Shown here: positions 2,762 to 51,580 of the stretch, piece after piece | How the letters are laid out: every line of letters starts with the position of its first letter | Numbering within the stretch: the first letter of the stretch is position 1 | Source: Nitrospirota bacterium | GTDB lineage: Bacteria > Nitrospirota > UBA9217 | Assembly (NCBI GenBank): GCA_963790205.1 | Contig: CAWBNQ010000001.1 | Span: 224,001 to 288,000 of the forward strand | Direction of reading: 5' to 3' | DNA length: 64,000 nt | Position numbers and translations under genes: made by a program | The notes under the pieces: model-generated | What the model was told of the DNA's origin: nothing | Databases searched by the model: none | What the model saw: only the letters and a program-made list of their open reading frames with translations

Positions 2762-3249
2762 TTACTCCTCTTTTGATTGACCGAAAGTAATTCTTCAACC
2801 CGCGTGACCGACCGCTGCATGTTCTTTTTCAGTTGGCACTCCCATATTGTCAGCACTTTCCAACCTGCTCGCCTCAACTGCAAAACCTTTATCTTATCAC
2901 GACTGACATTCTTTCTGAACTTCTGTTTCCAGAAGGCACTATGCGACTTTGGAAGATTAGGTCGACAATAAGGGCAGCTGTGCCAGAAGCATCCGTTCAT
3001 GAAAACTGCGATCTTTCTGGATGGGAAAGCAATATCTGGCCTACCAGGTGCCTTTTTCCAATTCACCCTATAGCCCCTAATGCCGTCCTTCCAAAGAGCT
3101 CTCCTTAGTGTTAGTTCCGGTTGTGTATCTCTCCCCTTGTTTGCACTCATGACCCTAGACGTACTTTCCCTGAGAGGCAGGGGGGCACGTCCATCTCTTA
3201 TAAAAAAATCTCGCGAGGGAGAATTCATATCTTTAAACATCGCTTGCAT
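2758..3249 (-). CDS. vsr: Very-short-patch repair endonuclease
   Basis: SRVMSANKGRDTQPELTLRRALW...GRPDIAF...FMNGCFWHSC...GWKVLTIWECQ; ATGA overlap with the MTase. Confidence 0.93.
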   Translation of the reverse strand: MQAMFKDMNSPSRDFFIRDGRAPLPLRESTSRVMSANKGRDTQPELTLRRALWKDGIRGYRVNWKKAPGRPDIAFPSRKIAVFMNGCFWHSCPYCRPNLPKSHSAFWKQKFRKNVSRDKIKVLQLRRAGWKVLTIWECQLKKNMQRSVTRVEELLSVNQKRSK

Positions 3250-18019: not shown

Positions 18020-19810
18020 TCAATATGCAAAGTAGGGCCCGAGTCCCAGGCCTGATGATGTCCCATCGATCCCAACATATACGCTTCGTCCAAAGTAGAA
18101 CGGAAGCCCCCAGTCGAACAAACCTGGTACAGGCGCACCGATATCAGAGAACACCATGTTGGGGTTGGGCGGACTCGTAAGAGTGTCAAGGTTTCCTATC
18201 TGGAAGAAAACATCTTTGGGTACCAAATTGATACCCTCATTCGTCGCGGAAAGAGTCGTTACGGACGAGGGACAGAACCAGCCCTGACCCTGTGAAGTAC
18301 AGTCTGGAAGCAAGCCTCTTGAGGGGGCGGTGAAAAACAGGCCGTTTGAGCCGCTGTCTATAACACTGTAATAAGGTATGCCATTAAGAACCGTGGTGAT
18401 TTCCCCGTAGTTGATGTCATATATGCTGTTATCGGCGCTGTGCTCTGTAGCCCCGGAAGAAGAGTTGTTCGGCTTTGTGTCGATCCCGAGCACGAGGACG
18501 CCGGAGACCGACGTCGTCCCGGCCGAAGAAACGCTCGGAAGCTCCACGATCACGCCGTTGTTATAGTCCGGGGAGAGCAGCGCCACTGGATTCGAAACCT
18601 GGTCGGGGTCGAAAACCACGGTCCCCACGCAAGAAGATTTGCTGCAGAAGTAATACATCCCGTTGTTTGGATACATTTGGCAGCCTTCTCCGCAGTCCTG
18701 AGCAAAAAGGCCGACCCCGAGTATGCCGTTAAATCCAGCATCTACCGGTTCCGAGCCCGCGTTTTCACATCCTGCGGGTCGGGTCCCGAACGCAGAAGAG
18801 TCGATGACCTGGATCGGGACATTTGGAGCAGTCTCATTCCCGAGGACAACATCCGCATATTCAACAGGTCCCCATAATGAAGAGCCGTCTCCGAACTGGG
18901 CGCACTCGGCAAGCGGGTAAGAGTGAGTACCATAACTGACAAGTTCCTGTGAAGGAGAAGCGTTTTTCAGGACCGACTTGAATATCCGCAGACCGTAGCT
19001 TCCGGTATCCAGGAGGATATCATTGATCGTATCGCAGGTTGAGGTGCCGTGGGTACAGACCGTAACGCTTACGCATGGCTTGTTCAGGTAGTTACTAGAA
19101 GTAACTGCCGAGCAAAGAGCTCCATTTACGGTAATGGGAAGCACGTTGTTCGCAGTAGCAGTGCCGGTCCCCACCGTCAGCAGAGCAGCACCTGGGGCAT
19201 TCCCTGACCTGGCCGCGATCAGTGTCGTGCCTGAGGTGACTATAGAAGAAGTGGCCAAACCGCTACTACTATCGATCGTTGCGACGTCCGGGGCTGTTGA
19301 AGTCCAGGTAACTAATAGGGGGTGCTGTAAGCCGTCCGAGAAGGTCCCCGTGACGGCGGTATACTGTTCGGACGCACCCAAGGAAATACTCGAGAACGCC
19401 GGCTCCACATCAATAGATACGAGCGCCGCCGGGTTCACCGTCAGGATAACAGGAGCTGAGACGATTTTCCCTGACGCAGCCGCGATCGTTGTTGTGCCAG
19501 TGCCTTTTGATGTGGCTAATCCATGCAAGCCTGCTGAATTGCTGATCGTGGCGACTGTCAGGTCCGATGAAGTCCACGTCACCGACGTCGTCAGGTCCTG
19601 TATAGTGCCGTCCGAGTAAGTCCCTGCGGCCCTAAACTGTTCGGCGATCCCGAGTGCGATGCTGGGGCTGGGACCGGGGCTGGAACTCGACGGGGTCACC
19701 GCAATGGATACAAGCGTCGGAGGGATAATCACTCCTCCTCCACCCGAACCGCCACAACCTGCAAGAAGCGAAAGGACCAGGATAAGAAGCGCTATTTTAT
19801 TTGATTTCAT
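18020..19810 (-). CDS. DUF3443-family lipoprotein with two Big_2 Ig-like domains and pepsin-like Asp motifs
   Basis: Lipobox LAGC; Ig repeats (VTWTSSDLTVATI, VTWTSTAPDVATI); NKPCVSVTVC, ILLDTGSYGLRI, NGILGVG, VIDSGSNG, FDWGLPFYFGR. Confidence 0.85.
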   Translation of the reverse strand: MKSNKIALLILVLSLLAGCGGSGGGGVIIPPTLVSIAVTPSSSSPGPSPSIALGIAEQFRAAGTYSDGTIQDLTTSVTWTSSDLTVATISNSAGLHGLATSKGTGTTTIAAASGKIVSAPVILTVNPAALVSIDVEPAFSSISLGASEQYTAVTGTFSDGLQHPLLVTWTSTAPDVATIDSSSGLATSSIVTSGTTLIAARSGNAPGAALLTVGTGTATANNVLPITVNGALCSAVTSSNYLNKPCVSVTVCTHGTSTCDTINDILLDTGSYGLRIFKSVLKNASPSQELVSYGTHSYPLAECAQFGDGSSLWGPVEYADVVLGNETAPNVPIQVIDSSAFGTRPAGCENAGSEPVDAGFNGILGVGLFAQDCGEGCQMYPNNGMYYFCSKSSCVGTVVFDPDQVSNPVALLSPDYNNGVIVELPSVSSAGTTSVSGVLVLGIDTKPNNSSSGATEHSADNSIYDINYGEITTVLNGIPYYSVIDSGSNGLFFTAPSRGLLPDCTSQGQGWFCPSSVTTLSATNEGINLVPKDVFFQIGNLDTLTSPPNPNMVFSDIGAPVPGLFDWGLPFYFGRSVYVGIDGTSSGLGLGPYFAY

Positions 19811-20267
19811 CGATGTTCACTCCCGACGGCACCAGGGCGGGCGCGTAGGCCCGGCCCTGCAGGTTCCGCATATGCCCCCATTTTTCCACAACAACACTGT
19901 TCGTCTTCACCTGAAGACTCCTGCGGCCCGGCTGGCGCGGCGTTTGCCGCAGGGCCTCCCGGTATTCCGCGGCATAGGAGCCCAGAAGCGGCGTAAGATC
20001 AGGGTGGACCAGGCCGTTCCAGGCAATGCCGAATACGACGCCGTTCGGCGATATGTATTCCCGGACCGTTGCAGCACCAGACCCGATTGTTTGGATCGTG
20101 TAGCCAGGAAGGACCGTTGTGGCGCCCCGCACTGCCGAGAGTGCCTTTTGGTCCGACATGACCGAATCGGCGGACTCACCGAGCGCGGCATGGGCCGCGT
20201 GTGCAGCCGCAAGAACGGCCGCCGAAATGCCAAGACCGATAAACAGGGCATAGAATCTTCTTTTCAT
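19797..20267 (-). CDS. DUF2844-family secreted protein
   Basis: Signal peptide ending AHA-ALG; VREYISPNGVVFGIAWNG, PDLTPLLGSY, GHMRNLQGRAYAP; usual partner of DUF3443. Confidence 0.85.
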   Translation of the reverse strand: MKRRFYALFIGLGISAAVLAAAHAAHAALGESADSVMSDQKALSAVRGATTVLPGYTIQTIGSGAATVREYISPNGVVFGIAWNGLVHPDLTPLLGSYAAEYREALRQTPRQPGRRSLQVKTNSVVVEKWGHMRNLQGRAYAPALVPSGVNIDEIK

Positions 20268-20896
20268 GGTCGCCGGAACCTCCTCTGCTGTTTGTAACTG
20301 CTCAGGCAGCATAGTAACTCAAAACCGGCTTAACTTCTACGGTTATGGATTGAAATATTTTCCACGGCGATTGTTTGCATCCCGGTCGCCAGATGTTAAG
20401 TCGGAGGATAAATTACGACGGCGCTCCCCAAACCAGCCAGCAGTATAATGGCGGTGATGAATTTAAGGCGCGCTTGCATATTGGTGATTTTCCCTGTCAT
20501 GATTATTGTACGCCCATTTTTTTCTCTCTGTGCTATTGAGCCGAAGGAGCGCTTTTTCTTAATAAAATTCCACACAGTTTCTCGGCGCACTCCGGGCATA
20601 TCCCTTGTGAACGCAGTAAATCCGATCCGCTATTAATAATATGTTCTATGTTAACCCAGACATCCTCTACTTTAACTTGCTTACACGAGGCGCAGATCAG
20701 GAGAAATCACTCCAAATATTTAATCCTTCTGGTCAATTTCCATGTCAAATAATAGTGATGCCGCCAAATAATAGTATGAATACCGTCGTATTCTTCATGC
20801 GTATGACCATACATTATACGGCCTTTTGGAGACTTCCACGAATAGTCATACTGTATTCAGTCTACCATTTTTTGTTCGTTCAATGCTCTCTGTACA

Positions 20897-37121: not shown

Positions 37122-40100
37122 TCAGTTGATAACTCTTATTACGTCCACGCCGTCAAAGGCCGTCGGTCCGACCTTACCCGTCACATGGACAGGAACGCTG
37201 TCTCCGAGCGGCAGGACGCCAATCACGTCGCTCCGCTTGAACTTTACCATGAGGTCCGGGATGCCGTCCTTGTCCTGGTCGCCGATCGCGTAGGGCCAGG
37301 TTTCTGCAGGGATGGTCCCTTCGAGCCGGATCGACGAGACATCGATGTCCTTGACGTTGTAGCCCGCCGGCAGCTCGATATAGACCACGACCCAGGTCCC
37401 GTTGCTCGATTTATTGAGCGTATCGGGGTCGAAGTCGATCGTGGCGGTGATGCCCGTTTGCGGCAGATGGACCGTGAAGCTCGCCATGCTCGTCCAGGGG
37501 CCGTAGAGCTGGCCGTCATAAGCCCGGCAGCGCCACTGATAAATGGTGTTGTCAGTAAGCGCTGTGGCCGGGGTTGCCGATGTGATGCCCGAGCTGCCGC
37601 CGGGCACGCCTATTATGGAAGTAACGAGCGCTCCGCCGCTGTATATCTCGAAATCATACGTAAGGCTCGGGCTGTCCGGATCGGTCGCGTTCACGACGGC
37701 AAGCGTGGGCGTAAGCGTCGCGACGCTGCTGCCGTCGGCAGGAGCCGAGAGCGACGGGGCGCTGGGCGCATCGTCGGCAGTATTCACCATGAAGGAGGCC
37801 TGCGGCATCCAGGGGCCGTAGAGCTTGCCGTCAAAGGCGCGTGTTCTCCAGTAGTAAGTCTGGTTTTCGGTTAGAACCACTGGCACGGTCCAGGATGTGA
37901 TCTGGCTGGTCTCAGCCACACCGGTTGTACTCGTAACGAGCGTTATGAGCCCGGAGTCGCTGTAGACCTCGAAGTCATACGTAAGAGCGTCCCGGTCAGG
38001 GTCCGTGGAATCATACACCGACAAGGTCGGCGTGAACACGGTCACCGCGCCGGCATTGGACGGGTTGGCAAGCGTCGGCGCGGTCGGCGGCTCGTTTACG
38101 GCGTTTGCAAAGAAGCCGACAACAGTTGACCACGGACTGTCCGCCTGCCCGTCGGAGGCCTTCACCCGGACGTAGTACTGCGTGTCTTCGGTAAGGCCTG
38201 TAACGCGCCAGGTAGTGGCGCTCTGGCCCTGGGCCACTGAACCGGAGCGGATGATATTGGGTGAATCGAAGGTCGGGACCGTATCGACCTCGAAGAAATA
38301 CGCGATGACACTTGAATCAGGGTCCGTGCTGTTCGCGACCGCGATGTCCGTATCGAGGGCAGCTATGGTCGCATTGTTCGCCGGGGCCGTGATAACCGGC
38401 ATTGTCGGCGGCTCGTTCGTGGTGTTGACGAAGAATGAAGCCGTTGTTGACCACAGGCCGGTCATGAACCAGTCGTCGGCCTGCGCCCTCCAGTAGTACC
38501 AGTTGTTCTCTACCAGATTTGCCGGGACCTGCCACGATGTGGTCCCCTGGCTGGACATAGTCGATGTCTGGCTGCTCATAACTCCTGTTGTCGTGGCAAT
38601 GATCTGGGTAAATCCGGGATCAAGGGCCACGTCGAAGTTGTAGGTAAGGCTCGGGCTGTCCGGGTCCGTGGCGTTGGTCACGGTAAGGACCGGCGTATAG
38701 GTCGCGACCTGGCTGCCGTCTGTTGGGCTGCTGATCAGGGGCGCCGTGGGAGGATCGTCCACGGTGTTGACCCGGAAGGAGGCGGGCGCCATCCAGGGGC
38801 CGTAGAGCCAGTTGTCATAAGCCCGGCTGCGCCAGTAGTAAGTCTGGTTTTCCGTGAGGGTCAGGGGAACAGTCCATGACGTTGTTCCCGTGCCCTGGGT
38901 GAGCATATCTGATGACGCCGTGAGTTGCGTCAGCGCGCTGTCGCTGTAGAGCTCGAACTGGTAGGTAAGCTTGTCGTCGTTCGGGTCCGAAGCGTTGTTA
39001 ACCGTCAATGTCGGCGTGAAGGTAAGAACGTCGGAGCCGTTAACAGGTCCGACGAGCGACGGGCTTGACGGCGCGCCTTCGATCCGGAAGTAGGCGCCGC
39101 TAAGGGTTTCCGTCAGACTGCCGACGGTTGCCTGGAGGATAACGAGGTAGTCCTTGGCCGTGTACCTGGTGGTGTCGATCAGGATGGTGTTTGCCGTTGA
39201 TCCTCCCATGGCAAGGGTCGCCTGGTTCGGGAAGGTGTCGTACACGGTCTGGTCGGAGACATTTACCGTGAGCACGGTAAGTGTTACGTTTTGAAGGTCG
39301 ATATTGCCCACGTTCGTGACGTTGTAGGACACGGTCGCGGTCTGCCCGGACAGAAGCTCCTGCGCGCCCACGGAGATCTGGCCCCGAAGGACCGATGCGG
39401 GGTTTATGACGTTGGTTATCGTAAGAGTCTGCGTTCCCGTGGCGATGATCGTCCCGGTTAAATCTCGTACAATGAGTGTGACGGGATAGGTCCCTGAGGG
39501 ATAGGTCCCTATGTTCCAGTAGTCCTTAAAGTTGTACGTTGCGCCGGGCATGAGGCTGGTGATGGCCTTGGTGTCCGTAAAGAGCGTTGTCGCCGGGCTC
39601 GTTACTATATTCGACCCGATGGTAAGCGTTGCCGAGAGGTTCTGGAGAATGGTGTTTCTGCTCTGGCTCGTTATGACTGCGCTCAGCGCTGCCGTGTCAT
39701 TGGGGTTATAGGATATCTTGTCCGTCGTAACCCCTGCGCTCATCCGGGTATCGGATGCGATCGTGAACCCCGTCACCTTCCTTGAGATCACCCGGCCTGA
39801 CTCGCTGAACTCGGCCATCACCGTGTACTGGCCGGCAAGAGTTGCTGCCGTGTTCCAGGTCCGGGTAAGCATAACGCTGCTGTTCGCGTTGACTGTGACC
39901 GGATCGGCCGTTGATATCGTGGCAATGAGATTTCCAGCGCTATCTTTCACGTACAGGCCAAGGGTAAGGTATCGGGTGTTTCCGGTGTTGTCCGATACGG
40001 TTAAGGTCTCCGTCACGGTGTCGTCGGCATTGTAAGTGGCTTTGTCGAGCGTGAGTGATGCGGCCAACCCTGCCGATTGAATGAAAATGGCCTGAGAAGC

Positions 40101-43100
40101 CATATTATTGTCTTCCCTGCTCTCGATGATCATGCTCGCGGGGTCTACGACGACGTAGACCTGCTGCTGCCCTGCCCATCCCGTGGTGTCGAGGCTCGCC
40201 TGGACCATAGCGGTACTTCCCAAGGCCATGACCGGGTAAATGGTCTGGCTCGAAACGAGCATGCCTCCGGAAGATGGGTTGCCGAGGTAGATATTCACCA
40301 GGACATTGCTCGTTGACGCACCCTGGTTATGGATGGTGGCGGAAACCGAGAGCGCGTTCCCTTCGGAAGGAGACGCGGGCGTAAGCTGGATGTCGGAAGC
40401 GGAGACGGCAAGGTCGGGGAGCACGGCCTGCTGGACCTGGAACATGACGGAAGCGCTGTTGTTCGCCTTGCTCGATTCGACGATGGCATTTGCAGGGTCA
40501 ACGACGATGTAGAGCACATTCGTTCCCACTTTGCCGAGGGTGTCGTAACTGAAGGTGACCGGGGCTGTGCCTCCGGCGCTTATCGAAGCGATAACCTGGT
40601 CAGTTCCGACCCGGACTCCGCCTGTTGCGGGATTGCCGTTGTAGAGCCGAACAACGACGTTTGATGCCGAGAGGCCGCCGATGTTGCTTATTGTCGCCGT
40701 GACCGGAATGGGGGTCCCCTCGTAATAGGGACCTGCCGGCAACGCGATGTTCTGAGGACTGATCGTGAGGTCCGGGTACTCGACGACGATGGTAACGTCT
40801 GCTGCGGCCTGGTTGTCGTCCTTGCGGCACTCGGAGATGGCGTTCGCCGCGTCCACCACAGCATAAATATGATGGAGCCCCAGGCCCCCGCCGGCCCAGT
40901 TGTAGACCACATCCTGGAAGTCTCCGGGATTAAGGGCCTTTGTGGTTGATGCGGTGCCGATGGCTGTTCCGCCAGCCGCCGGATCGCCGTCGTAGTACGT
41001 AACCGTCACGGTCGGTGTGGAAGCGATCGCTCCGCCGTTCCCTACCCTGACAGCGATATTTGTCGACAATCCTGCCTGCTCAATGCGCAGGTCCGAGGCT
41101 GTGAGATTCGGGGTGAGATAGGGGTTCGGATTAGGTCCGATTGATGCCTGAGTTTGGTACGTATTATTAAGAAGCCAGCTCGGGGCCTCATGCTGCGGGA
41201 TCGAGCCGTCGTCGTTTACATTTGTGACATGATAAGAAGGCTGATTGTAAATACGGCGTCCGTTGGACCATGGATGGTTCGGATCTACCGAGTGATACAC
41301 GCGCATCGCTTCGAGATTGTTTTTATCGTCATGGCCTGTCACAACTAATTCGACCTGTCCATCGCCGTCCACGTCAGCTACAGTCACGTTTTGCGGGAAG
41401 ACATTATCATCTCCGCCAAAAGGTTCCTGATACAAAACTGTGCCGTCTTTCCCGGAAAGGATCGTGAAGTAGCCTCCGCTGTTTATCATCACCTTCGGGA
41501 TGCCGTCTCCGTCCAGATCGAAAACCGTCGGCGCCGCACTATAGGCAGAGCTAGTATAAACCGGAATCGTAAGTGTATTCTTGAGTTGACCGTCCTTATT
41601 CAAGACTAAAATCTTATTCTCGCTCCTGATCCCTATTTCCGGCTTGCCGTCCCCGTCGAAGTCTGCCACAATTGGCGGACTTGCGCCAAAGGAACCAATT
41701 GAGTTATTTCCAAGGAGCTGTCTTACGGATACCGGACCCCATTTGATATTACCCGTGTTGTCGAGAAGATAGACCACAGCATCACCTGAAACGTATCCTT
41801 CCAAAACAATTTCCGGGTAGGGATCGCCGTCGAAATTAGCGATAGCGACGGCCCCATCGGGAAGCGAAGATTTCCACCAGATACGATTGCAATTGTTGTC
41901 ATACGCTGCATTGCCGGCCACGATCTCCTGCTGACCGTCGAGGTTCAGATCAACAACTGCTGCAAAATCATACAATACCCCTCCGTATACGTTGAAGTAA
42001 CCCTTCCCACTGCCATTATAAGAGTTATAGCCGGCGCATCGGACGGAGCCGTCCGCGTTGATGACCGTCGGTCCCGAGATGATTTCCTTGTTCCCGTCTC
42101 CCTTGAGGTCGGCGATGGCGGTAACGTTCCTCTGAGAAATAGTGGGGATAAAATAGCCGCTGGAGCTTGAGGGATGGGCTGTTTTCCATGCCTGGACTTG
42201 CGCACTATCGTCCCACTTCATGGTCCAGTCGTTGTTGTAGACGACCAGCCCATAACCATAGGTGTTATTGTTAGTTTCAAAGATGATCTCCGGTTTCCCG
42301 TCACCGTCGAAGTCTCCGGACGAAACATAGGAGAGTATATCCGCGTGGTGGTTTATATCGTAGATTGAAGCATAGTTCTCCCCGGTATCGCCCTTGAAGG
42401 CCAATATCTTTGCCGAGTACACCAGTAGAGGGTTCATCACAGGGAGAACGATATCCGGAACATCATTTTGATCTATCTTCCCGTCGCCGTTCGTGTCCCG
42501 CAAATGCATGATTGTAGGCTGAGGTAACAACAGCCAACCGGCGCTAGGTATTCCCCACTTCCACTTGACCGTTGCTTGAATGGGGTTCGTTGGGACGACC
42601 TGACAGTCCTTGCAGGACACGAGATGATTGTTGTCCTCGTTCTGTTCGAGAATGGCGTCGCCGGAATCGACGAACGCGTAGAGCGGCGAGTGGAGGAACG
42701 TGACCGCGCCGGAGAGCGGCACGTCGACCGCACCAACTCCTTCGGGCCAGAGCGCCGCGGGATTCGATCCTGTCCCGAAACTCATGAGACCCGTGCCTAA
42801 GAGGTTGTCCACCCCCGCGGTGTATTTCCCGTCTCCGTCCTTGTCCTCGAAGATAGAGACGTTAAAGGACGTGGTTATCTTGTCGTCGCCTGTGTTCTGG
42901 AAGGTGACGTGGGCGGTGCCAGAGATTGCGAGCGATTGGGGATCGGTTGTCGTGTTCGTGAGGTCGATCGAAACAGGAACAAGGTCAGGTCCCAGGGTCT
43001 CCCCCGGCGATAAGATGGTGAGCGAGCGGATGGCCGTGTTGTTGTCTTCGTACATTTCCACGACCACATTCTCGGGGTCGGCCACGGCGTAGAACCGGTA

Positions 43101-45233
43101 TACCTGGGGCGAGGCGATGAAAGAGTAAGTTACCGTGATGCTGCCGTCGCCTGCGATGTCGCTTATCGGGAATGTCTGGAGCAGAACTCCGCCTGTACTG
43201 GGATCGCCGTTGTAGATCGCCAGGTTGAATGCACCCGTGTCCTTGATGCCGGTATTATGGGCGGTTATGGTAAGCGCCACGCTGTCACCGGATACGGGAT
43301 GCGGAGGGTTGAAGACCAGGTCTGTGGCGGAAATTTCTATGTCCACCATGTCGGTCATGATCCTGACTGACGCGCGGTTGTTGTTCTCGTTCGATTCGAT
43401 GATCTGGTTGGCCCGGTCGAGGATGACGTAGACGTCGTGGATGCCGCTGGGTATGGCCCAGCTTGCGGTTATAAGCTGCGATCCTCCGGCGACAAGGGAG
43501 ATCGTCTGGCTGTTTATGAGCGTGCCGCCCGATTCGGGCGCGCCGTCGAAGATCTCGACGGTGAAGTTATTTGCCGCATCAGCGCCGATGTTATGGACAT
43601 TTGCGGCGATCTGGACCGTGTCGCCTGCATGGGGCCGGGAGGGATTTAGAATAATGTCTGTGGGTGAAATTGTCAGATCAGCCTGGGTGAGCGTGCCGCC
43701 CACGTTCACCGTGACCGAGCCGGTGTTGTTGGTCTTGGATATCTCGGTGATTACGTTCCCTGAGTCGGCAACGAGGTAGAGCGTATGGGAGCCGTTCGTC
43801 GTAAGGGTGACGCCGATGGTCCCGGTGCGCATATCGCTGCCGCTCACGCCGGAGATATCGGCGGTCTGGAGGAGAACGCCGTTATTTGCCGGGTCGCCGT
43901 CATACAAGGCCACGGTAAATGCACCTGCAGGGCTCTCGCCTATATTTCTTATGGTGTAGTTGAGCGTGAACGCAGTTCCCGCGGTTGGTACATAGGTTGA
44001 GGGTATAAGGTCTGAGGAATAGACGGCAAGGTCCGGGCCGGTTGCCACCCAGAGCCGGGCTGAGGCTTTGTTGTCGAGCTTGTTGGTTTCCGAGATGAGG
44101 TTATCAGGGTCAGCGACGACGAAGATGGTGTCAGCGCCGGTGCCGCTGAAACTCGTTGTGATTGACGCTTGTGCCGATGAGCCAAGGGCTATGAGCGGGA
44201 TTATCTGGTCCGTGCCGATCTGAGTGCCGCCGACTGCGGGATCGCCGAGGTAGAAGCGGACCATCACATTTGATGCGTTGTCGTAACCCGTATTGCTTAT
44301 TACGGCGCTGATGGTCGTCGTGGCCCCGGAAAGGGGCATGGAATTCGAGAAGGTGATTCCGGAGGTTGAGACAGCAAGGTTCGGTTTTGCTTCTGCAAGG
44401 GCCTGGAGCGCCAGGGCGGTTGAATAGGGATCGTCGTTCCAGGAACCGTCAGCGAGTTGGGATGTGGTGAGGTAATTGATGCCGTTCTGGATGGTCTGGA
44501 CGCTCCCCTGCCCGCTTTCGATCATGGACATAAGAGATAGAGCCGTGTCGTAAACAGTTGAAGGTGAGTTCCCGAACCCGCCGTCGGTGTTTTGATAGGC
44601 GAGCAGGAACGCCGATGCTTGATTGATGGAAGTCTGATTGATGAAGACGGAATTGTAGGCAGACAGCGCTCGGAGGACGAATGATGTGACGTAGGTGTTG
44701 CTGGCATCGCCTGGAGTGAACCCCCATCCACCGTCTGTGTTCTGGTTCGTTGTGAGGTAGCTCAATGACTGGCCGATGAGCGTAGTGTCGGAGTAATTTA
44801 TGGCAGAAAGGGCCTGGAGGGCCAAGGCGGTGTCGAGGATTTCGTTGACGTAATCTGAATCCATTCCCCATCCGCCTTCCGTTCCCCGATAGAGAAGCAG
44901 GCTGGCCAGATCGGCTGAGGTGTCCTGTCCGGCACGTTTGAGAGCGATGATCTGGCGTGCGAGATAGTCAGTAGGCGAAACGATCTGGCCGCTGAGCCAC
45001 TGGAAGCCTGTCGAATATGCTTGGCTTGAAGGATCAAGAGCGTAGGCGGCATCTAGAGCCGCAGCCGTGGAGTAATAATCGGTGGTCACCATTTGCGGCC
45101 AATTACCGCTAGCGGTCTGAGAAGAGTAGAGCCAGGAGAGGCCGGATGAAATCTGTGGCGATTGAGCAAAAGCACGAGAATATGGAGACGATAACAAGAT
45201 AATTAAAGCGATGATCAACGCTTTTTTTTGCAT
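37122..45233 (-). CDS. Giant secreted multidomain protein: prenyltransferase-like alpha/alpha toroid, about 8 CARDB, FG-GAP/VCBS beta-propeller, MG-like domains, 5 FN3-like repeats
   Basis: Signal peptide; QNTDGGWG/QNTDGGFG/QLADGSW repeats; PDL...DPxNxIxExxxxNN CARDB units; DFDGDGKPEI repeats; DKxxYNxxD motifs; five TPTL...DPD...YYWRxRAxD...GPW units. Confidence 0.9.
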   Translation of the reverse strand: MQKKALIIALIILLSSPYSRAFAQSPQISSGLSWLYSSQTASGNWPQMVTTDYYSTAAALDAAYALDPSSQAYSTGFQWLSGQIVSPTDYLARQIIALKRAGQDTSADLASLLLYRGTEGGWGMDSDYVNEILDTALALQALSAINYSDTTLIGQSLSYLTTNQNTDGGWGFTPGDASNTYVTSFVLRALSAYNSVFINQTSINQASAFLLAYQNTDGGFGNSPSTVYDTALSLMSMIESGQGSVQTIQNGINYLTTSQLADGSWNDDPYSTALALQALAEAKPNLAVSTSGITFSNSMPLSGATTTISAVISNTGYDNASNVMVRFYLGDPAVGGTQIGTDQIIPLIALGSSAQASITTSFSGTGADTIFVVADPDNLISETNKLDNKASARLWVATGPDLAVYSSDLIPSTYVPTAGTAFTLNYTIRNIGESPAGAFTVALYDGDPANNGVLLQTADISGVSGSDMRTGTIGVTLTTNGSHTLYLVADSGNVITEISKTNNTGSVTVNVGGTLTQADLTISPTDIILNPSRPHAGDTVQIAANVHNIGADAANNFTVEIFDGAPESGGTLINSQTISLVAGGSQLITASWAIPSGIHDVYVILDRANQIIESNENNNRASVRIMTDMVDIEISATDLVFNPPHPVSGDSVALTITAHNTGIKDTGAFNLAIYNGDPSTGGVLLQTFPISDIAGDGSITVTYSFIASPQVYRFYAVADPENVVVEMYEDNNTAIRSLTILSPGETLGPDLVPVSIDLTNTTTDPQSLAISGTAHVTFQNTGDDKITTSFNVSIFEDKDGDGKYTAGVDNLLGTGLMSFGTGSNPAALWPEGVGAVDVPLSGAVTFLHSPLYAFVDSGDAILEQNEDNNHLVSCKDCQVVPTNPIQATVKWKWGIPSAGWLLLPQPTIMHLRDTNGDGKIDQNDVPDIVLPVMNPLLVYSAKILAFKGDTGENYASIYDINHHADILSYVSSGDFDGDGKPEIIFETNNNTYGYGLVVYNNDWTMKWDDSAQVQAWKTAHPSSSSGYFIPTISQRNVTAIADLKGDGNKEIISGPTVINADGSVRCAGYNSYNGSGKGYFNVYGGVLYDFAAVVDLNLDGQQEIVAGNAAYDNNCNRIWWKSSLPDGAVAIANFDGDPYPEIVLEGYVSGDAVVYLLDNTGNIKWGPVSVRQLLGNNSIGSFGASPPIVADFDGDGKPEIGIRSENKILVLNKDGQLKNTLTIPVYTSSAYSAAPTVFDLDGDGIPKVMINSGGYFTILSGKDGTVLYQEPFGGDDNVFPQNVTVADVDGDGQVELVVTGHDDKNNLEAMRVYHSVDPNHPWSNGRRIYNQPSYHVTNVNDDGSIPQHEAPSWLLNNTYQTQASIGPNPNPYLTPNLTASDLRIEQAGLSTNIAVRVGNGGAIASTPTVTVTYYDGDPAAGGTAIGTASTTKALNPGDFQDVVYNWAGGGLGLHHIYAVVDAANAISECRKDDNQAAADVTIVVEYPDLTISPQNIALPAGPYYEGTPIPVTATISNIGGLSASNVVVRLYNGNPATGGVRVGTDQVIASISAGGTAPVTFSYDTLGKVGTNVLYIVVDPANAIVESSKANNSASVMFQVQQAVLPDLAVSASDIQLTPASPSEGNALSVSATIHNQGASTSNVLVNIYLGNPSSGGMLVSSQTIYPVMALGSTAMVQASLDTTGWAGQQQVYVVVDPASMIIESREDNNMASQAIFIQSAGLAASLTLDKATYNADDTVTETLTVSDNTGNTRYLTLGLYVKDSAGNLIATISTADPVTVNANSSVMLTRTWNTAATLAGQYTVMAEFSESGRVISRKVTGFTIASDTRMSAGVTTDKISYNPNDTAALSAVITSQSRNTILQNLSATLTIGSNIVTSPATTLFTDTKAITSLMPGATYNFKDYWNIGTYPSGTYPVTLIVRDLTGTIIATGTQTLTITNVINPASVLRGQISVGAQELLSGQTATVSYNVTNVGNIDLQNVTLTVLTVNVSDQTVYDTFPNQATLAMGGSTANTILIDTTRYTAKDYLVILQATVGSLTETLSGAYFRIEGAPSSPSLVGPVNGSDVLTFTPTLTVNNASDPNDDKLTYQFELYSDSALTQLTASSDMLTQGTGTTSWTVPLTLTENQTYYWRSRAYDNWLYGPWMAPASFRVNTVDDPPTAPLISSPTDGSQVATYTPVLTVTNATDPDSPSLTYNFDVALDPGFTQIIATTTGVMSSQTSTMSSQGTTSWQVPANLVENNWYYWRAQADDWFMTGLWSTTASFFVNTTNEPPTMPVITAPANNATIAALDTDIAVANSTDPDSSVIAYFFEVDTVPTFDSPNIIRSGSVAQGQSATTWRVTGLTEDTQYYVRVKASDGQADSPWSTVVGFFANAVNEPPTAPTLANPSNAGAVTVFTPTLSVYDSTDPDRDALTYDFEVYSDSGLITLVTSTTGVAETSQITSWTVPVVLTENQTYYWRTRAFDGKLYGPWMPQASFMVNTADDAPSAPSLSAPADGSSVATLTPTLAVVNATDPDSPSLTYDFEIYSGGALVTSIIGVPGGSSGITSATPATALTDNTIYQWRCRAYDGQLYGPWTSMASFTVHLPQTGITATIDFDPDTLNKSSNGTWVVVYIELPAGYNVKDIDVSSIRLEGTIPAETWPYAIGDQDKDGIPDLMVKFKRSDVIGVLPLGDSVPVHVTGKVGPTAFDGVDVIRVIN

Positions 45234-45472: not shown

Positions 45473-46366
45473 CTATTGCCCTACCAAATTGAACGTCTCC
45501 TCAGTCCTGTTCCATTCAACCTGATATTTATCCCAAGGCGCGACAGGGTATTTTGCTTTAAGCGCGTCATTCATCTGCATAAACATTTCAAAACCCTTTT
45601 GAATCTTCTCGCCAAACCTCCGCCCTTCCCACGAACCTCCAATAATTATCATCCTCAGACAGTCTTTATTGAATATCAGTCTGGCATTAAAATGCTGAAC
45701 GTCTTCAAGTTTTTTCTTAAGAACTGCATCAATCTCAGGGCAGCCAGTCACTGGGATTTCATCTTTATCGCCCTCACATTTTAACGCGACATCGATAGCA
45801 TATGGCCCTTTGATGAGGGAAAATAGTTCCACTTGACTTTCTTGGCCACCTGGCCCTCCCTTTCGGCCACCAAACATGTAGGCTTGAAATTTTTCCCAAC
45901 TCGTCTGATTGCTGCGCGGAGTCCCCGAAGCAATAGAAGCCTCCTCTCGTTTGGGCAAAGCCATATCAGGTGATGCCTCTCCAGGGGAATACGATAAGAA
46001 TGGCGAAAGGATGAGAGCAGCAACATGAATGTCATCTAACCACCCGTAAGCAAAACGATATTTTCCATAATAACGCACACTTATCTTAGTTCTTTTTTTT
46101 ATGAAACGCACCCCCAACTCATATGCGAATTCGGTAAAGTCTTTTTTTGCAAAGGTCGCCTTTCGCCAAAGTATCCAACTAATAAAGAGGACCAAAATTG
46201 AAATGGCCTCGCTTACCATCAAATCTATTTCGGAGTGCCGATGAAAACGATAGATATTCTTAATAAATGCGATTAGGAGTATCATCGTCATTGTCGATGC
46301 AAAAAACAAAACGTACCACAAGACTACAAGATAAGAAGGGCGATTGTATTTTTTTTTAAGCAGCAT
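45473..46366 (-). CDS. Membrane protein (two N-terminal TM helices plus soluble domain); candidate immunity/accessory protein
   Basis: AT-rich ORF overlapping the upstream stop by 11 bp; hydrophobic segments near aa 12-35 and 50-66. Confidence 0.65.
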   Translation of the reverse strand: MLLKKKYNRPSYLVVLWYVLFFASTMTMILLIAFIKNIYRFHRHSEIDLMVSEAISILVLFISWILWRKATFAKKDFTEFAYELGVRFIKKRTKISVRYYGKYRFAYGWLDDIHVAALILSPFLSYSPGEASPDMALPKREEASIASGTPRSNQTSWEKFQAYMFGGRKGGPGGQESQVELFSLIKGPYAIDVALKCEGDKDEIPVTGCPEIDAVLKKKLEDVQHFNARLIFNKDCLRMIIIGGSWEGRRFGEKIQKGFEMFMQMNDALKAKYPVAPWDKYQVEWNRTEETFNLVGQ

Positions 46367-49300
46367 AAGAATACCTCCAGGATGACTTTTTCACGGCAAA
46401 GTACTTTTCTCGAGATGTGCGCGGGCCATATGCATATTGAATCAGGGCCAGCAACAGCATTTCTACGAGCGTTGCAATTATAGCGACAAGGAGAATCCCA
46501 ACAATGGCTGCCCCAAATCCAGTTGCTGCAAACATTATGGCAGAAATATATGCCGCGGATATCACACTCATGGATAGATCAAGAACAGCGGCAGATTCCG
46601 CCTTTACTGTATTGCCCGTATTGTTATACATGTCATCGTATGTCTTCCAAGCGGATATGCTCATTGTAATATAACCGGCTATAATTGAGAACTTCGAGGC
46701 TATTCCACTGCCTAGTTTAAAGAGGAACTTAATCATGGCATCGGTAAAATCGAAGGCAAAATTTTTCAATATGTCTCCAAAAAAATTACTCAATTGATCA
46801 CCGGTTGTCGCTGTTCCACTGCCATTCAACCCTCCGGAAATTACATATGCTCCAGCGCCCGTGTCCGGATCGGTTACAATATATCCGTCACCATGCCAGT
46901 CATAATACTGTATCGACTGCCCAGGGATTGTTACGCGCTTTCCAGCAGCAATCGCGTTTTGAATATCCGACATAGTTTCCGCGGATATCCGAAGTAACGG
47001 CAATATCGTGGCGCTGTTAGTTGAGTCTATCGTATAAATCGGGATGCCTTGCTGATTGGCGATGCTAAGAATTTTTACTGCCGACACAGCCTGTCCATCT
47101 TGATGAAGCTCCTCAATTATTGTGTGTTCATACGCTGACCCGATTGTTCCGGATACGGTCATAAAGCCTTTTTCATCAGACGCATTACCTCTTAAAGAGA
47201 CCGCATTTATTGGATAGCGTTTTACATCGAGATTCGTTCCGAGAGAACTGATGCTATACGGGACGCCGTAGATATACGAGATAGTCGGTGCTAATGTCGC
47301 AAGCATCTCAGCTGGTTGTTTTGAGTATGCGACCTTCCCTGTCGCAATCATTCGGTTTGTCGTCTCTGTCTGAGTAAAATATCCAAGGTTATGCAGATTG
47401 AGAGTCTCCCCGATAATATCATCCACAGCAACGTCTTGTTGCCCTAGTAGACTCCCAGCTGCGCTGAGTTGCGCACTCCTTTGATCAAGAAGACTTTTTG
47501 ATACTTTTTGTAAGTCGAGCCCGATTGAGGCATATGTTGATGCCGATATCTTATGAGTAATGATATCTGTCGAGCCGTTAGGCACAATAAACGTCACGGA
47601 CAACTCCTGCGTCATTCCCATGCCCGTGCTGCCGCCCGTACTTACCGTTGCACCGTCGATATTGAGAACCGGTTTGAGGTTCACGAGATATGGCGGGGTG
47701 TTGTAATAGCCATAGTTCTGTAAAGTGGTCGCATCGGCCTGAGTAGCCGGCATATATGCTATGGTTATGCGCTTACCCGCAAGGTATGCTGTTGAATATG
47801 TAACATCCATTGACTGCGTCATTGACTGCGGATCGTATATTGATATCCCGACTTTATACTGAAGAGAGTCGGGCACTTCGGCATACTTCGAACCTGCGAG
47901 AACGGTTTTGTAGGGAAGACTGGCCGGAAGGATCTCAAGTTGTTGAGTGATGATATTTTTGCTCCCAATAACGTCTCCAACAGTGGGATTTTGTAAATTG
48001 TTTATATATGATTCAAGAGAGGTTTTGACTTGATCAAGTTGCGTTTGAATAAGAGTCGTATCTATCCCTGTTATCGATCCAGTGGATGTATTGGTGACTC
48101 CGCTGTTTATCAATGAGTTAGCAAACGAGGAAGGATCAAAGCCTGTAATTTGTTTTACGTCAAGGCCTGATTTGTAAGTATATTGCTTAAAACTTGCATC
48201 GAGCGGAATCCAGGTATTTCCCTGCCGTTGCACCGCTCCCCGCGAAGGGATGTAATCTATCCAAGCTTCAACCCATACATGTTCCATCTGTGCCGCGTAG
48301 ATTGTTCCGCCTGATCTTACGCCGGTGACCGGAATCCCGCTATTGGCGATATATTTTAATGCTGCACTCTGGTCTGTGAAGCCGCCCACCCAATTCATAA
48401 CCTTATCGATAGGGACTTCAATAGTTCCGTAAACATAATGGGCATAAATGTTCGAGGCCCTAAGAAGGGCAATCAGCAAAGATGCGGTGTCAAAATCATT
48501 GCACTGTTTGGACTGAAAACACGCTTCTGCGCCCTGGATGCTACCGTAAGTGGGTGCATATTCGATGTTATTCCGAACCCAATTATAGATACTTACCGGA
48601 TTGTAGTTAAGTTGTGCAGCAAGCGCCTGGATGTCTTGAGTGAACTGAATTTCGGGGGTTTCAGATAGATCGTCGGCTGTTGGCTGGACCACGGTCGTGG
48701 CCGATGCCAAATTCAACGTACCGGATTCAAGATTCAAAACAGACTGCGGACGAAAATCGTTTACCGCGGGGGGAACAGAGGTCTCGGAGATGGGCAATGC
48801 GGGCATTTCAGGTTTAGAATCAGATGATAAAAGACCGGTCAATGGCCCGTTGGATGCGACGAGGATGGGCTTGTGCTCAATTGCTGCTCCCGACTTAAAG
48901 ACTATGGAACCTACCGGTCCTGAAATCTGTGTGGCCAAGAGATTAGTCATTAAACGGCTATCGGCGACTTTCTTTTTGCCTTGAGTCTTCTGCTTCAGAA
49001 AATCGCGCTGGAACTCCTCGGAAGTTGTCCTCGGCGCTCTTGCCTTGGCTTTCACCCTTCTGTTCGGTAAGTTGTTCGGATCGAGAGGGACGTGCTTTTT
49101 GGCAGGCTTTACCTTTTCAAGATGCAGCCGCGTTGTTTCGATCCTGGCCTTTAGGTCTGACGCGGTTTTTGCTTTGTCGATGTCATCGATCTCGGATTTG
49201 AGCTGAGTGAGGTTCTTCTCGTAATTCTTGACGAACGCCATATGCCTGTCGAGGATGACCTGCGGGAGCTTGGCGTCTTTGAGCTTCTTCTCCGTGGCGC

Positions 49301-49640
49301 TGAACTCGGCCCTGAGGTCTATATCGATCTTTTCAATCTCCGCTTTCTTCGCCTTTATTCCTGCAACCTCTGCGGCTACATCCTCGCCTCTCCCTGCTTT
49401 CTCTCCGGCCTTCGTGACACCCGCGCGAATCCCTTCCAGCGCCTTCTCGAACCGCTCCGACGCCGTTTGTATGGGCGTATTGCGATACGCCCCTGCGTGC
49501 CCCTTGTCGCTTGTTCCTTGGCCCTGCGGCGTTGCCGCAAAGGCAACGGCCTGCCATACCGGGCCGAACGTCCAGATAAAGAAAAACAGCACGACTGCCG
49601 AGATAAGTCTTAAAACCCGGTAGAAGGTCTTCACGCGCAT
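46356..49640 (-). CDS. Large exported transglutaminase-like domain protein with hydrophobic C-terminal tail
   Basis: Signal/TM N-terminus; IYNWVRNNIEY, NDFDTASLLIALLRASNI, EHVWVEAW, WIPLDAS (transglutaminase-like core); DPDTGAGAYVISGGLNG then about 150 aa hydrophobic tail. Confidence 0.85.
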   Translation of the reverse strand: MRVKTFYRVLRLISAVVLFFFIWTFGPVWQAVAFAATPQGQGTSDKGHAGAYRNTPIQTASERFEKALEGIRAGVTKAGEKAGRGEDVAAEVAGIKAKKAEIEKIDIDLRAEFSATEKKLKDAKLPQVILDRHMAFVKNYEKNLTQLKSEIDDIDKAKTASDLKARIETTRLHLEKVKPAKKHVPLDPNNLPNRRVKAKARAPRTTSEEFQRDFLKQKTQGKKKVADSRLMTNLLATQISGPVGSIVFKSGAAIEHKPILVASNGPLTGLLSSDSKPEMPALPISETSVPPAVNDFRPQSVLNLESGTLNLASATTVVQPTADDLSETPEIQFTQDIQALAAQLNYNPVSIYNWVRNNIEYAPTYGSIQGAEACFQSKQCNDFDTASLLIALLRASNIYAHYVYGTIEVPIDKVMNWVGGFTDQSAALKYIANSGIPVTGVRSGGTIYAAQMEHVWVEAWIDYIPSRGAVQRQGNTWIPLDASFKQYTYKSGLDVKQITGFDPSSFANSLINSGVTNTSTGSITGIDTTLIQTQLDQVKTSLESYINNLQNPTVGDVIGSKNIITQQLEILPASLPYKTVLAGSKYAEVPDSLQYKVGISIYDPQSMTQSMDVTYSTAYLAGKRITIAYMPATQADATTLQNYGYYNTPPYLVNLKPVLNIDGATVSTGGSTGMGMTQELSVTFIVPNGSTDIITHKISASTYASIGLDLQKVSKSLLDQRSAQLSAAGSLLGQQDVAVDDIIGETLNLHNLGYFTQTETTNRMIATGKVAYSKQPAEMLATLAPTISYIYGVPYSISSLGTNLDVKRYPINAVSLRGNASDEKGFMTVSGTIGSAYEHTIIEELHQDGQAVSAVKILSIANQQGIPIYTIDSTNSATILPLLRISAETMSDIQNAIAAGKRVTIPGQSIQYYDWHGDGYIVTDPDTGAGAYVISGGLNGSGTATTGDQLSNFFGDILKNFAFDFTDAMIKFLFKLGSGIASKFSIIAGYITMSISAWKTYDDMYNNTGNTVKAESAAVLDLSMSVISAAYISAIMFAATGFGAAIVGILLVAIIATLVEMLLLALIQYAYGPRTSREKYFAVKKSSWRYSYAA

Positions 49641-49808
49641 GGTTGCTCTCCTTGTGCCTATTCAGTTTTAAAACGAATTCTGAAACTCAGGTGCCGCGTT
49701 AAAGCAAATGCGGGAAGTGCTGGTACTGTTCTAACCGTGAATCGTCGAACCAGTAAATATAAGGAAGGCGCTGTTTTCGGATTGAGATTGTACTTTTGAA
49801 ACAACCGG

Positions 49809-49825
49809 TGCTTTTTTTCTGCCAA
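49809..49825 (-). promoter_or_regulatory. Possible sigma-54 promoter for the transglutaminase locus
   Basis: TTGGCAGAAAAAAAGCA has GG-N10-GC spacing, about 170 bp upstream of the ATG; the -12 box is imperfect. Confidence 0.35.
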
Positions 49826-49869
49826 CTGTAATACTTTAGAACCTGAATGTCAATCGGGGAAACCCTGAA

Positions 49870-51264
49870 TGTCCTCCCAAAGTGATAATGTCCTATTCTA
49901 AGCTACAATGCCCAACCGTACCGGGAGGGCAAGATGGCGGAAGAGGACAAGATCATAATGAGTCAAAAGGAAGTGAACCGGCTTCACGTTATTCGGCAGG
50001 CGATAGAAAAAGCGATAACTCAGGATCAGGCAGCAAAAATACTCGGATTAACGGATCGGCAGGTAAGAAGAATTGCCAGAAGCGTCCGATTGGAGGGAGA
50101 GGCCGGCATTTGCCACAAGTCCCGAGGGAAGAGGTCGCATAATCGGATTGGCGACAAGATAAAGGACAAGGCCGTCACGCTCTGCCGGGACACATACAAG
50201 AAATTCGGTCCCACCCATGCCAGCGAGAAGCTTGTAACGTTTCACAAGATCAAGGTCAGCGACGAGACGCTCCGGGGATGGTTTCAAGAGGAGCATATCC
50301 CCTACAAGAGTCGCAAGAAGAGACCACACCGTCAGTGGCGCGAACGAAAGGCCCACCGGGGTGAGATGATCCAGATGGACGGGTCCCATCACGACTGGTT
50401 CGAGGGCCGCGGCCCCTGGTGTGTTCTCATGGGTTACGTGGATGATGCCACCGGCACCGTGCATGCCCGTTTTTATGAGTATGAGGGAACACTGCCGGCC
50501 ATGGATGGTTTCAAGCGTTATATCAGGCTCTACGGGCTGCCCCAGAGCGTCTATCTGGACAGGCACTCAACGTACAAGGCCACGGCAAAGCAGAGCATCG
50601 AAGAGGAGCTAAACGACATTCGACCGATGAGCCATTTCGAGAAGAGCCTGGCAGAGCTTGGCGTCGAGGTCATCCATGCTTATTCCCCCCAGGCCAAAGG
50701 ACGCATCGAGCGGCTGTTCGGAACCTTTCAGGATCGGGTCGTCAACGAGATGCGGCTGGCCGGGGTGACGAATAGAGGGGAAGGCAACACGTTCCTGGAT
50801 GGCTATCTCCCCGAGTTCAACAGGAAGTACGCCAAGGAAGCGGCACAGAAAGCTGACTTTCATCGACCCGTCGCGAATAAGAGGGCGCTTGACACGATTC
50901 TCTCGATCAAGACCGACCGAGCATTACGGAACGACTTTACGATCGCCCACAACAAGAAGCTTTACCAGATCAAGAGCAATATCCGAGCTAAGAAGGTGAC
51001 GGTGGAAGAGAGAACCGACGGAACCATGCGCATAATCCATAACGGCCAGAGTCTGAAGTATCAAGAAATCATCGCACGACCCATACAGGGAAAGAAGTCG
51101 GCCGAGAAACCAAAACCCCTAAGATCATGGAAGCCGTCTGCATCACATCCTTGGAAGTCCCCAGCAAGGGCAATGGTCAAAGCAAGAACAGAGATTCAGG
51201 CAACATCATAAAACCGGACATTTTTGCTTTGGTAAGAATAGGACATTTTAACTTTGGGTTGACA
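49870..51264 (+). mobile_element. IS1202-family (ISNCY/IS481-related) insertion sequence with 16-bp flanking direct repeats
   Basis: 30-bp terminal IRs at 49870-49899 and 51235-51264 (26/30 match, TGTC...GACA); TCGGGGAAACCCTGAA at 49854-49869 and 51265-51280. Confidence 0.92.
49934..51211 (+). CDS. DDE transposase (IS1202/ISNCY type)
   Basis: N-terminal HTH, GEMIQMDGSHHDWFE, VDDATG, YLDRHS, SPQAKGRIERLFGTFQDR. Confidence 0.95.
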   Translation: MAEEDKIIMSQKEVNRLHVIRQAIEKAITQDQAAKILGLTDRQVRRIARSVRLEGEAGICHKSRGKRSHNRIGDKIKDKAVTLCRDTYKKFGPTHASEKLVTFHKIKVSDETLRGWFQEEHIPYKSRKKRPHRQWRERKAHRGEMIQMDGSHHDWFEGRGPWCVLMGYVDDATGTVHARFYEYEGTLPAMDGFKRYIRLYGLPQSVYLDRHSTYKATAKQSIEEELNDIRPMSHFEKSLAELGVEVIHAYSPQAKGRIERLFGTFQDRVVNEMRLAGVTNRGEGNTFLDGYLPEFNRKYAKEAAQKADFHRPVANKRALDTILSIKTDRALRNDFTIAHNKKLYQIKSNIRAKKVTVEERTDGTMRIIHNGQSLKYQEIIARPIQGKKSAEKPKPLRSWKPSASHPWKSPARAMVKARTEIQATS

Positions 51265-51580
51265 TCGGGGAAACCCTGAAATTCAGCTTCGAAAAACCTT
51301 AGACTTTTTTGGAGGAATCCCAAAAACCCAAAATAAGCTGTTTCGGTTCCGCGGCTCTTGCCGTGACTGAGGTCCGCGCAGTGATGGTTTTGGATGTTTC
51401 GTGCTCTTTTCCGAAATCGGTGAAGGGCCAGCCTTATTCCTCATCCCCGAATGGGGCAAAACTGGAAGCACGAGATGAAGATTTTTGACTTATTCGATTA
51501 AGAATACGACACGAAGTATACAAGTTCGGAAGGATGAAACTCTAACGGACTTCAGGAAGAACTTCTTGCTCTTCAAAAAA

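Follow-up and report, generated by a model that had tools for sequence, protein, structure and literature searches.

A putative polymorphic toxin carrier of Nitrospirota with an exchangeable, possibly membrane-depolarising tip and a candidate membrane immunity protein

We analysed a window of 64,000 nucleotides from a Nitrospirota bacterium (GenBank assembly GCA_963790205.1, contig CAWBNQ010000001.1, positions 224,001 to 288,000), in which three open reading frames (ORFs) lie in a row on the minus strand. ORF A (46356..49640, 1094 amino acids) is a predicted secreted carrier composed of a signal-like N-terminus, a helical bundle, a transglutaminase-like core, a conserved trunk and a variable C-terminal tip. 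ORF B (45473..46366, 297 amino acids), likely the cognate immunity protein, has two variable N-terminal transmembrane helices and a conserved domain predicted to be cytoplasmic. ORF C (37122..45233, 2703 amino acids), annotated with Pfam, is a frequent neighbour of such carriers and a possible surface or targeting partner. An earlier sequence-only reading had proposed an exchangeable pore-forming tip encoded beside its immunity protein. The comparisons below led us to favour, with a probability of about 0.6, the explanation that ORF A is a polymorphic toxin carrier with a membrane-depolarising tip and that ORF B is the immunity protein; the first part, that ORF A is the carrier of a polymorphic toxin system, is very probable from sequence comparison.

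Relatives of the carrier were found in 15 of 61 related genomes and are encoded on at least 669 genome stretches. Of the 71 relative loci listed, most were labelled as Nitrospirota, Geobacteraceae or further deltaproteobacteria, and some as beta- or gammaproteobacteria. Residues 1-35 of ORF A (49536..49640, minus strand) were read by eye as a predicted Sec signal peptide with a basic n-region, a hydrophobic h-region and the residues A-F-A; the hydrophobic segment covers residues 5-35, and A35 is nearly invariant in the homologue alignment. About 300 residues of helical bundle and disordered linker separate this signal from the core. The sole significant Pfam match was Transglut_core (PF01841, E=2.7e-14) at residues 333-482 (48195..48644, minus strand), in which the putative triad C380, H454 and D481 is intact; the Pfam scan gave no RHS match and no haemagglutinin/TPS domain. 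When 53 relatives were compared, the position of C380 was occupied by Cys in 34, Gly in 18 and Ala in 1, while H454 was kept in 51 and D481 in all 53. Because the Cys is replaced in 19 of these relatives, catalysis does not appear to be required across the family, and, with a third of the relatives lacking the residue, the core is probably not an obligatory processing protease; peptide or wall binding is its likelier conserved role.

The AlphaFold model of ORF A (predicted local distance difference test score (pLDDT) 81, predicted template modelling score 0.75) consisted of a helical bundle at residues 60-176, a disordered linker, a papain-like core and a mixed alpha/beta region that ends in a beta hairpin containing a Gly-rich motif. 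The top structural match of the core was 3isr, a putative cysteine protease (Z 12.6, root-mean-square deviation 3.4, 151 residues aligned), with PeiW, PeiP and TglA ranked lower; membrane-attached TgpA and pseudomurein isopeptidases were among the structural relatives. Fold searches with the complete model yielded transglutaminases and helical bundles of a generic kind and scarcely covered residues 600-940, and the trunk that follows the transglutaminase core had no match of its own in them.

The Gly-rich motif (residues 924-940, 46821..46871, minus strand; DPDTGAGAYVISGGLNG) is the last conserved element of the trunk and is predicted to form a beta strand followed by a Gly-rich turn. It lies where the sequence-only reading had placed a junction, GAGAYxISGGLNG, and 154 residues of tip follow it, close to the 150 or so that had been estimated. 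We searched with residues 500-1094 of ORF A and aligned the 119 non-self matches among the 120 listed of 173 relatives; the family form of the motif is GAGAYxISGGxxG. The alignment revealed that identity collapses right after the motif: identity to ORF A was 0.71 at residues 921-940 and at most 0.11 in each later 20-residue window. G928, Y932, I934 and G940 were each kept in 117 of the 119 homologues, and conservation stopped at residue 941, which was kept in 13. The tips of these homologues fell into 54 BLAST clusters, and 84 of the 119 had at least two hydrophobic segments.

We then compared 83 cassettes from the fetched loci, taking identity over the last 200 trunk residues. Among the 64 trunk pairs that were at least 75% identical, the tips were less than 30% identical in 58 and at least 40% identical in 5. 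The genome of the window itself encodes three trunks, each with a tip unrelated to the other two and a different gene behind it, and exchange exactly at the motif was seen at other loci. These data support the proposal that the tip of ORF A is exchangeable and, as judged from the alignments, that the Gly-rich motif is the family-wide boundary of tip exchange. No shared DNA element was seen by eye under the basic tails of unrelated tips in 8 cassettes. A quick tree of the C-terminal third of the trunk (74 rows, one of them from ORF A's own tip family) grouped by tip class, with 2 changes for NlpC tips and 11 for hydrophobic tips; this clustering indicates a partial co-adaptation or joint inheritance of trunk and tip class.

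By sequence comparison, a conserved trunk ends at a sharp junction and bears many unrelated tips, known toxin domains among them. The distinct short tips were hydrophobic in 128 of 194 cases, and the majority of tips had no Pfam match. When 32 tips of low hydrophobicity were scanned with Pfam, NlpC/P60 was found in 13 and phospholipase A2 in 2, with weak single matches to SLT, CHAT and Tox-ART-HYD1; 13 had no match at all and 1 had a domain of unknown function (DUF) alone. Tips with Ntox16, peptidase M23 and PT-HINT occurred among 35 selected full-length relatives, and in several tips a hydrophobic segment lies ahead of a soluble toxin domain. In two relatives the same junction is followed by PKD, PASTA, DUF6531 and RHS repeats, and other relatives extend past it into immunoglobulin (Ig)-like domains. 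Short ORFs made of a trunk fragment plus a tip accounted for 13 of 102 distinct cassettes, some of them arising from insertion sequence (IS) splits or possible frameshifts, and tandem cassette loci were present in three other genomes (G005, G007 and G031).

The gene behind the tip was examined in 78 of the 102 cassettes, those with a complete tip of 80-300 residues and a complete adjacent gene; the other 24 were cut, had a long extension or lacked a close neighbour. Tip family and next-gene family were both shared in 19 cassette pairs, the tip only in 40, the next gene only in 14 and neither in 2930. None of 2000 permutations reached 19 shared pairs, a significance inflated by relatedness, as kin are not independent. 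We also assigned the tips to compartment classes from cassette clustering and domain scans. Hydrophobic tips were followed by a membrane protein in 41 of 47 cases (by a protein with a single N-terminal segment in 4 and with none in 2), NlpC/P60 or SLT-like tips by a protein with one N-terminal hydrophobic segment resembling a signal peptide in 14 of 15, and tips with the HYT motif by a protein without a hydrophobic segment in 5 of 5. The next genes of wall-hydrolase tips often encoded beta-propeller or YARHG proteins. Across these cassettes the next gene is matched to both tip family and tip compartment.

The same held for ORF B. Its family is small, with only 24 proteins; among the loci examined it was seen at 7, directly behind the ORF A tip family in 5 and as an orphan in 2, and a tip-only search of 401 genomes gave 3 loci, 2 of them with ORF B. 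Together with the concordance, these counts support the claim of the sequence-only reading that the downstream gene travels with the tip. The two orphan homologues, which have no upstream trunk, are at L048:5941-6855, adjoining an integrase gene, and L044:1907-2743 (L numbers denote loci).

With both the exchange of tips and the change of partners in view, the alternative that the sequence-only reading had kept open, a plain membrane anchor, is unlikely, and we rate its chance as slight. Under it, a transglutaminase-like enzyme of the periplasm would be anchored by the tip at its C-terminus, and ORF B would be a membrane protein that is either accessory or unrelated. The hydrophobic helix with its basic tail fits such an anchor, as do the intact putative triad and structural relatives such as membrane-attached TgpA and the pseudomurein isopeptidases. 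We nevertheless disfavour it because unrelated sequences replace the tip between trunks that are 90% identical, because soluble hydrolases stand in its place in about one third of relatives, and because the next gene changes together with the tip.

ORF B shows both features noted earlier, an 11-bp overlap with the stop of ORF A and two transmembrane helices (hydrophobic segments at residues 11-39 and 45-68). Basic residues flank the hairpin, and both of its ends are predicted to be cytoplasmic. Within the family the helices and their loop are least conserved (0.18-0.31 identity) and the C-terminal domain most (0.60); the soluble part comprises about 230 conserved residues, including a conserved 125-residue C-terminal domain with invariant residues, so that ORF B, to judge from its translation, is not one of the small immunity proteins that lie wholly in the membrane. 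Searches with it gave no Pfam match, no PDB sequence match and no usable Atlas match, and no Pfam match was consistent across 21 family members. Complex prediction of the tip with ORF B gave a score of 0.00, that is, no answer, and counts neither way. On the strength of the pairing, the tip and ORF B likely form a polymorphic toxin-immunity pair, and ORF B is probably the cognate immunity protein of the tip.

A different function for this pair would be kin recognition or signalling, with the tip as a membrane-embedded identity tag and ORF B as its receptor. In such a system, for which IdsD and IdsE of Proteus provide the comparison, the tip would be delivered without forming a pore, and the cytoplasmic domain of ORF B would relay or end the signal. 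Co-variation of tip and next gene fits a lock-and-key pair equally well, a 125-residue domain with invariant residues would be superfluous for a pure plug, and the hydrophobic tips are extremely diverse. Against this, the same junction bears cell-wall hydrolases, phospholipases, Ntox16 and Rhs toxins, which argues that the carrier is built for harmful cargo, and the tip has a weak yet repeatable match to the pore domain of pyocin S5. We consider the identity-tag function improbable.

The tip (46356..46820, minus strand) is a likely membrane-acting toxin made of amphipathic helices, a hydrophobic hairpin and a basic tail. Its 4-5 predicted helices include those of the hairpin at residues 1011-1038 and 1042-1069 (46434..46610, minus strand), and the Kyte-Doolittle value peaks at 2.95 over residues 1029-1072. 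The long uncharged stretch reported from the sequence is present as a run of 38 residues, although the stretch as it was quoted contains one Glu; the corresponding runs are 49 in colicin A and 35 in colicin E1. The tip model (pLDDT 70) had long helices at tip residues 4-35, 41-68, 71-98 and 102-129. A profile search of 1.84 billion representatives yielded 23 proteins, 17 of them new. Of the new ones, 12 showed the end of the trunk by profile, 2 began inside the motif and 3 were too short to judge, and no other carrier of the tip family was seen among the 23. A tblastn search of the tip against plasmids gave one chance match.

Searching 177,635 PDB sequences with the tip profile gave the pore domain of pyocin S5 as the top match, with E=0.014 for a profile of 6 rows and 0.001 for one of 19 rows. 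The alignment covers residues 372-497 at the C-terminal end of pyocin S5 and takes in the hairpin as well as the Thr-Gly turn and the final helix. An Atlas colicin cluster scored 0.81 for the tip, which we take as a lead only. A pore-forming tip is plausible: the profile match to pyocin S5, though weak, agrees with it, whereas colicin A was unmatched, no Foldseek match of the tip model reached E<=0.001, and no colicin appeared among the 33 fold matches listed or among the 50 listed VIA matches. It is likely that the tip works like a membrane-inserting bacteriocin domain, although we do not place it in PF01024, and action by a pore or depolarisation is the mode that we moderately favour; true homology to the colicin pore fold is doubtful.

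The tip might instead be toxic at the membrane by another route, binding or blocking a membrane protein or lipid carrier, with ORF B still its immunity protein. This proposal draws on the same genomic evidence as membrane depolarisation, and the predicted long helical hairpins match generic bundles alone (best Z 9.1 among the matches listed), so that nothing in the fold ties the tip to a channel. Conserved residues of a catalytic type are missing, however, as the only invariant column across 19 tips is a Thr at a helix turn, and the hairpin equals those of colicins A and E1 in hydrophobicity and length. A toxic action of this other kind seems to us rather unlikely.

Several observations weigh against a depolarising tip with ORF B as its immunity protein. 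Colicin E1 scored 8.4 bits with a 36-row tip profile, a score that 7 of 500 local shuffles reached and that an unrelated membrane ORF, one of 617 in the genome, exceeded. Colicin A scored 1.2 bits, a value reached by 150 of 500 local shuffles. The hhalign probability was 4%, and none of 6 tips scanned had a Colicin (PF01024) Pfam match. At 154 residues and 4-5 helices the tip is shorter than the colicin domain, which the accessible text of PMC11630599 describes with 10 helices. The basic tail (net +2 or more) that follows the hairpin in 28 of 34 tip family members, together with the strongly hydrophobic helix, also fits a stop-transfer membrane anchor, the main point that the favoured explanation leaves unaccounted for, along with how the tip would escape retention in the membrane of its producer. 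The third locus of the tip-only search (L036, a divergent truncated cassette) has a different membrane protein next to it, and 0 of 76 partner genes matched a Pfam immunity family. The large conserved soluble domain of ORF B is unlike the small hydrophobic CdiI proteins.

For the favoured explanation we propose the following steps. Since secretin genes are present in the genome of the window and no VipB match was found, ORF A would be exported by Sec and then released across the outer membrane, possibly by a type II system; export by a type VI secretion system was rejected on the lack of a VipB match, and thus of a sheath gene, in this 98% complete genome. The giant ORF C may help to present or target the tip, which could be released near the Gly-rich motif. 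The tip hairpin would insert from the periplasmic side into the inner membrane of rival cells and depolarise it, and the variable two-helix hairpin of ORF B would neutralise it.

ORF A was compared with known systems. In the accessible text of Zhang et al. 2012 (PMC3482391), polymorphic toxins are described in which an inactive transglutaminase lies right after the signal peptide and before RHS repeats, with an anchoring role proposed for the inactive forms. As in those toxins, ORF A has a signal peptide, a transglutaminase-like domain, a variable C-terminal toxin and predicted Sec-type export, and two of its relatives (L073 and L062) run into RHS repeats. Unlike them, ORF A has no RHS, its tip being fused to a 460-residue trunk region after the core; the core starts at residue 333 rather than right after the signal peptide; the putative triad is intact and the Cys is kept in 34 of 53 relatives; and a giant TED/CARDB/FG-GAP gene often adjoins the carrier. 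Because ORF A differs in three of the described features and yet its trunk can carry RHS, it fits best into this lineage, as a variant without RHS. Figure 5D or the supplementary tables of Zhang et al. 2012 might list RHS-less forms. An RHS-less carrier with a giant TED/CARDB neighbour was not found in a literature search that covered few subscription papers, and the accessible parts of PMC11297309, PMC12419801, PMC10318531 and bioRxiv 10.1101/2025.11.11.687626 held no account of it.

Like pore-forming colicins and pyocin S5 (PF01024), the tip combines amphipathic helices, one of them at its end, with a Thr-Gly turn and a long hairpin free of charged residues, and a membrane protein is encoded beside it. 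It differs in its length, helix number, basic tail and lack of a PF01024 match, in its predicted export on a large signal-peptide carrier, and in that ORF B combines two helices with a large soluble domain. Further counterparts are the ionophore toxins of contact-dependent growth inhibition (CDI), membrane-depolarising polymorphic tips with a two-helix CdiI of 72-100 residues (PMC11630599, available portion), and the type VII secretion substrate TspA of Staphylococcus aureus, whose tip depolarises membranes and whose immunity protein TsaI is a five-helix DUF443 protein (PMC7456083, available portion). As these sources describe them, both resemble the arrangement predicted for ORF A and ORF B, in which a helical C-terminal domain, polymorphic and active at the membrane, is paired with a membrane immunity protein that is polymorphic as well, and both ends of the CdiI hairpin are cytoplasmic, as predicted for ORF B. 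The carriers, however, are CdiA/TPS proteins or type VII substrates, and ORF B, with 297 residues, is larger than CdiI and has no Pfam match to any such family. Machine-independent, multi-part, Sec-exported toxins are also reported from Gram-positives, namely ABP/S8-PTS (PMC12582261, PMC9424270) and the umbrella particles of Streptomyces (PMC11062931). So far as the accessible text of these papers goes, they resemble the present system in lacking an injection machine, in having a secreted carrier with a variable tip and an adjacent partner protein, and in that several tips place a hydrophobic stretch ahead of the soluble toxin domain; they differ in being Gram-positive and in using a serine protease or lectin-bearing particles, where the ORF A system, which occurs in diderm bacteria, has a TED/CARDB protein and a trunk of the transglutaminase-like type.

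We tentatively suggest, at somewhat less than even odds, that these loci represent a class of antibacterial toxin that works independently of any machine, is widespread among Nitrospirota, Geobacter-like bacteria and others from sediment and groundwater, and has so far gone undescribed. Its Sec-exported transglutaminase-like carrier would have no Rhs shell and a giant TED/CARDB adhesin-like partner, and its commonest cargo would be a very large unclassified set of membrane-attacking helical tips (the 128 of 194 above), each with its own membrane immunity protein. Little work has addressed the weapons that uncultured bacteria of sediments, nitrifying and iron-reducing ones among them, use against other bacteria. 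With the junction motif as a simple marker, new toxins that act on membranes could be catalogued together with their matched immunity proteins in a directly testable form, and the ORF A trunk would be a new delivery scaffold, linking the transglutaminase leader of Rhs toxins, as the text of Zhang et al. 2012 presents it, to a stand-alone carrier.

ORF C contains a TED/prenyltransferase-like toroid, 8 CARDB domains, FG-GAP and Ig/FN3-like repeats. Among 87 complete short-tip cassettes, an ORF C homologue lay at most 4 genes downstream in 31, and another trunk was reached in 14. In several genomes one arrangement recurs in tandem: a trunk with its tip comes first, followed by one to three small genes and then by a giant ORF C homologue. 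In the tandem arrays of G005:C15, G007:C12 and L035, the ORF C homologues are often truncated with a different short tail, and the stretches between cassettes repeatedly encode small helix-turn-helix regulators and Cys/His proteins rich in repeats.

The history of this copy can be read in part from its composition. The sequence-only reading had described the tip and ORF B as AT-rich, and their GC content is indeed 0.42 against about 0.55 for the genome; the trunk from about residue 300 onward is similarly low (0.42-0.49), so that AT-richness does not mark the tip boundary and was rejected as a marker. The low-GC block (45480..48429, minus strand), comprising the C-terminal two thirds of the trunk, the tip and ORF B, has 75.5% DNA identity to a locus of G005, while its flanks resemble the paralogue on contig C8 of the genome of the window (G000; C3, C5, C10 and C11 are further contigs of it), with 82% identity at 48629-49865 and 84% at 37129-44821. 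Protein identities switch partner at the block edges as the DNA does. Because identity switches in this way, the low-GC segment appears to be an imported block of 3 kb or slightly longer, which extends from the transglutaminase core across ORF B into the start of ORF C. The proposal that the motif is the recombination junction thus agrees with the family-wide exchange boundary, but for the copy in the window the motif was rejected as the place of the most recent recombination, which appears to have swapped a block that starts in the transglutaminase core.

The paralogous C8 cassette (G000:C8:17843-31825) has a transposase gene interrupting its transglutaminase domain. Its tip carries an LRHYT motif and belongs to the cluster with the weak Tox-ART-HYD1 match; a 338-residue gene without signal peptide and an ORF C paralogue, 82% identical, follow in that order. 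The third trunk, at G000:C3:881013-885225, carries a different tip, also hydrophobic, and is followed by two small genes for membrane proteins but not by ORF C; the C-terminal part of an ORF C gene stands by itself at C5:301643-302292. Elsewhere, the trunk and junction are fused to RHS arrays at L073:6998-15232 and L062:6995-13208; the Rhs tip of L073 is itself hydrophobic, and a three-helix membrane gene lies next to it. Long forms with Ig-like extensions of 300-500 or more residues after the junction occur at L040-L041 (G005:C4), L012, L013, L022 and L023, those of G005:C4 lying before a phosphodiesterase-domain protein and signal-peptide genes. The tips of L099, L104 and L038 form the cluster with a weak CHAT (caspase-like) match, and in two of these loci the genes that follow encode a protein with a signal peptide and an M23 peptidase.

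Upstream of ORF A, a sigma-70-like site (49825..49853, minus strand; 10 of 12 positions) was identified by consensus match alone. The surrounding 70-200 bp (window 49790-49870, minus strand) also precede the C8 paralogue, at C8:17626, and three further loci of the genome (C3:718154, C10:59572 and C11:122661), which suggests a shared regulatory motif. Directly upstream of this site lies an ISNCY-family insertion sequence (about 49870-51265, plus strand; transposase 49934-51211) with a short direct repeat at both ends and a 99.6% identical copy on contig C5. Farther away in the window, as read from translations, a DNA cytosine methyltransferase-like gene is followed by a Vsr-like gene (1046-3249, minus strand), and a gene for a 171-residue secreted protein is followed by one for a 596-residue lipoprotein that has Ig-like repeats and a DTGS motif like that of aspartic proteases (18020-20312, minus strand).

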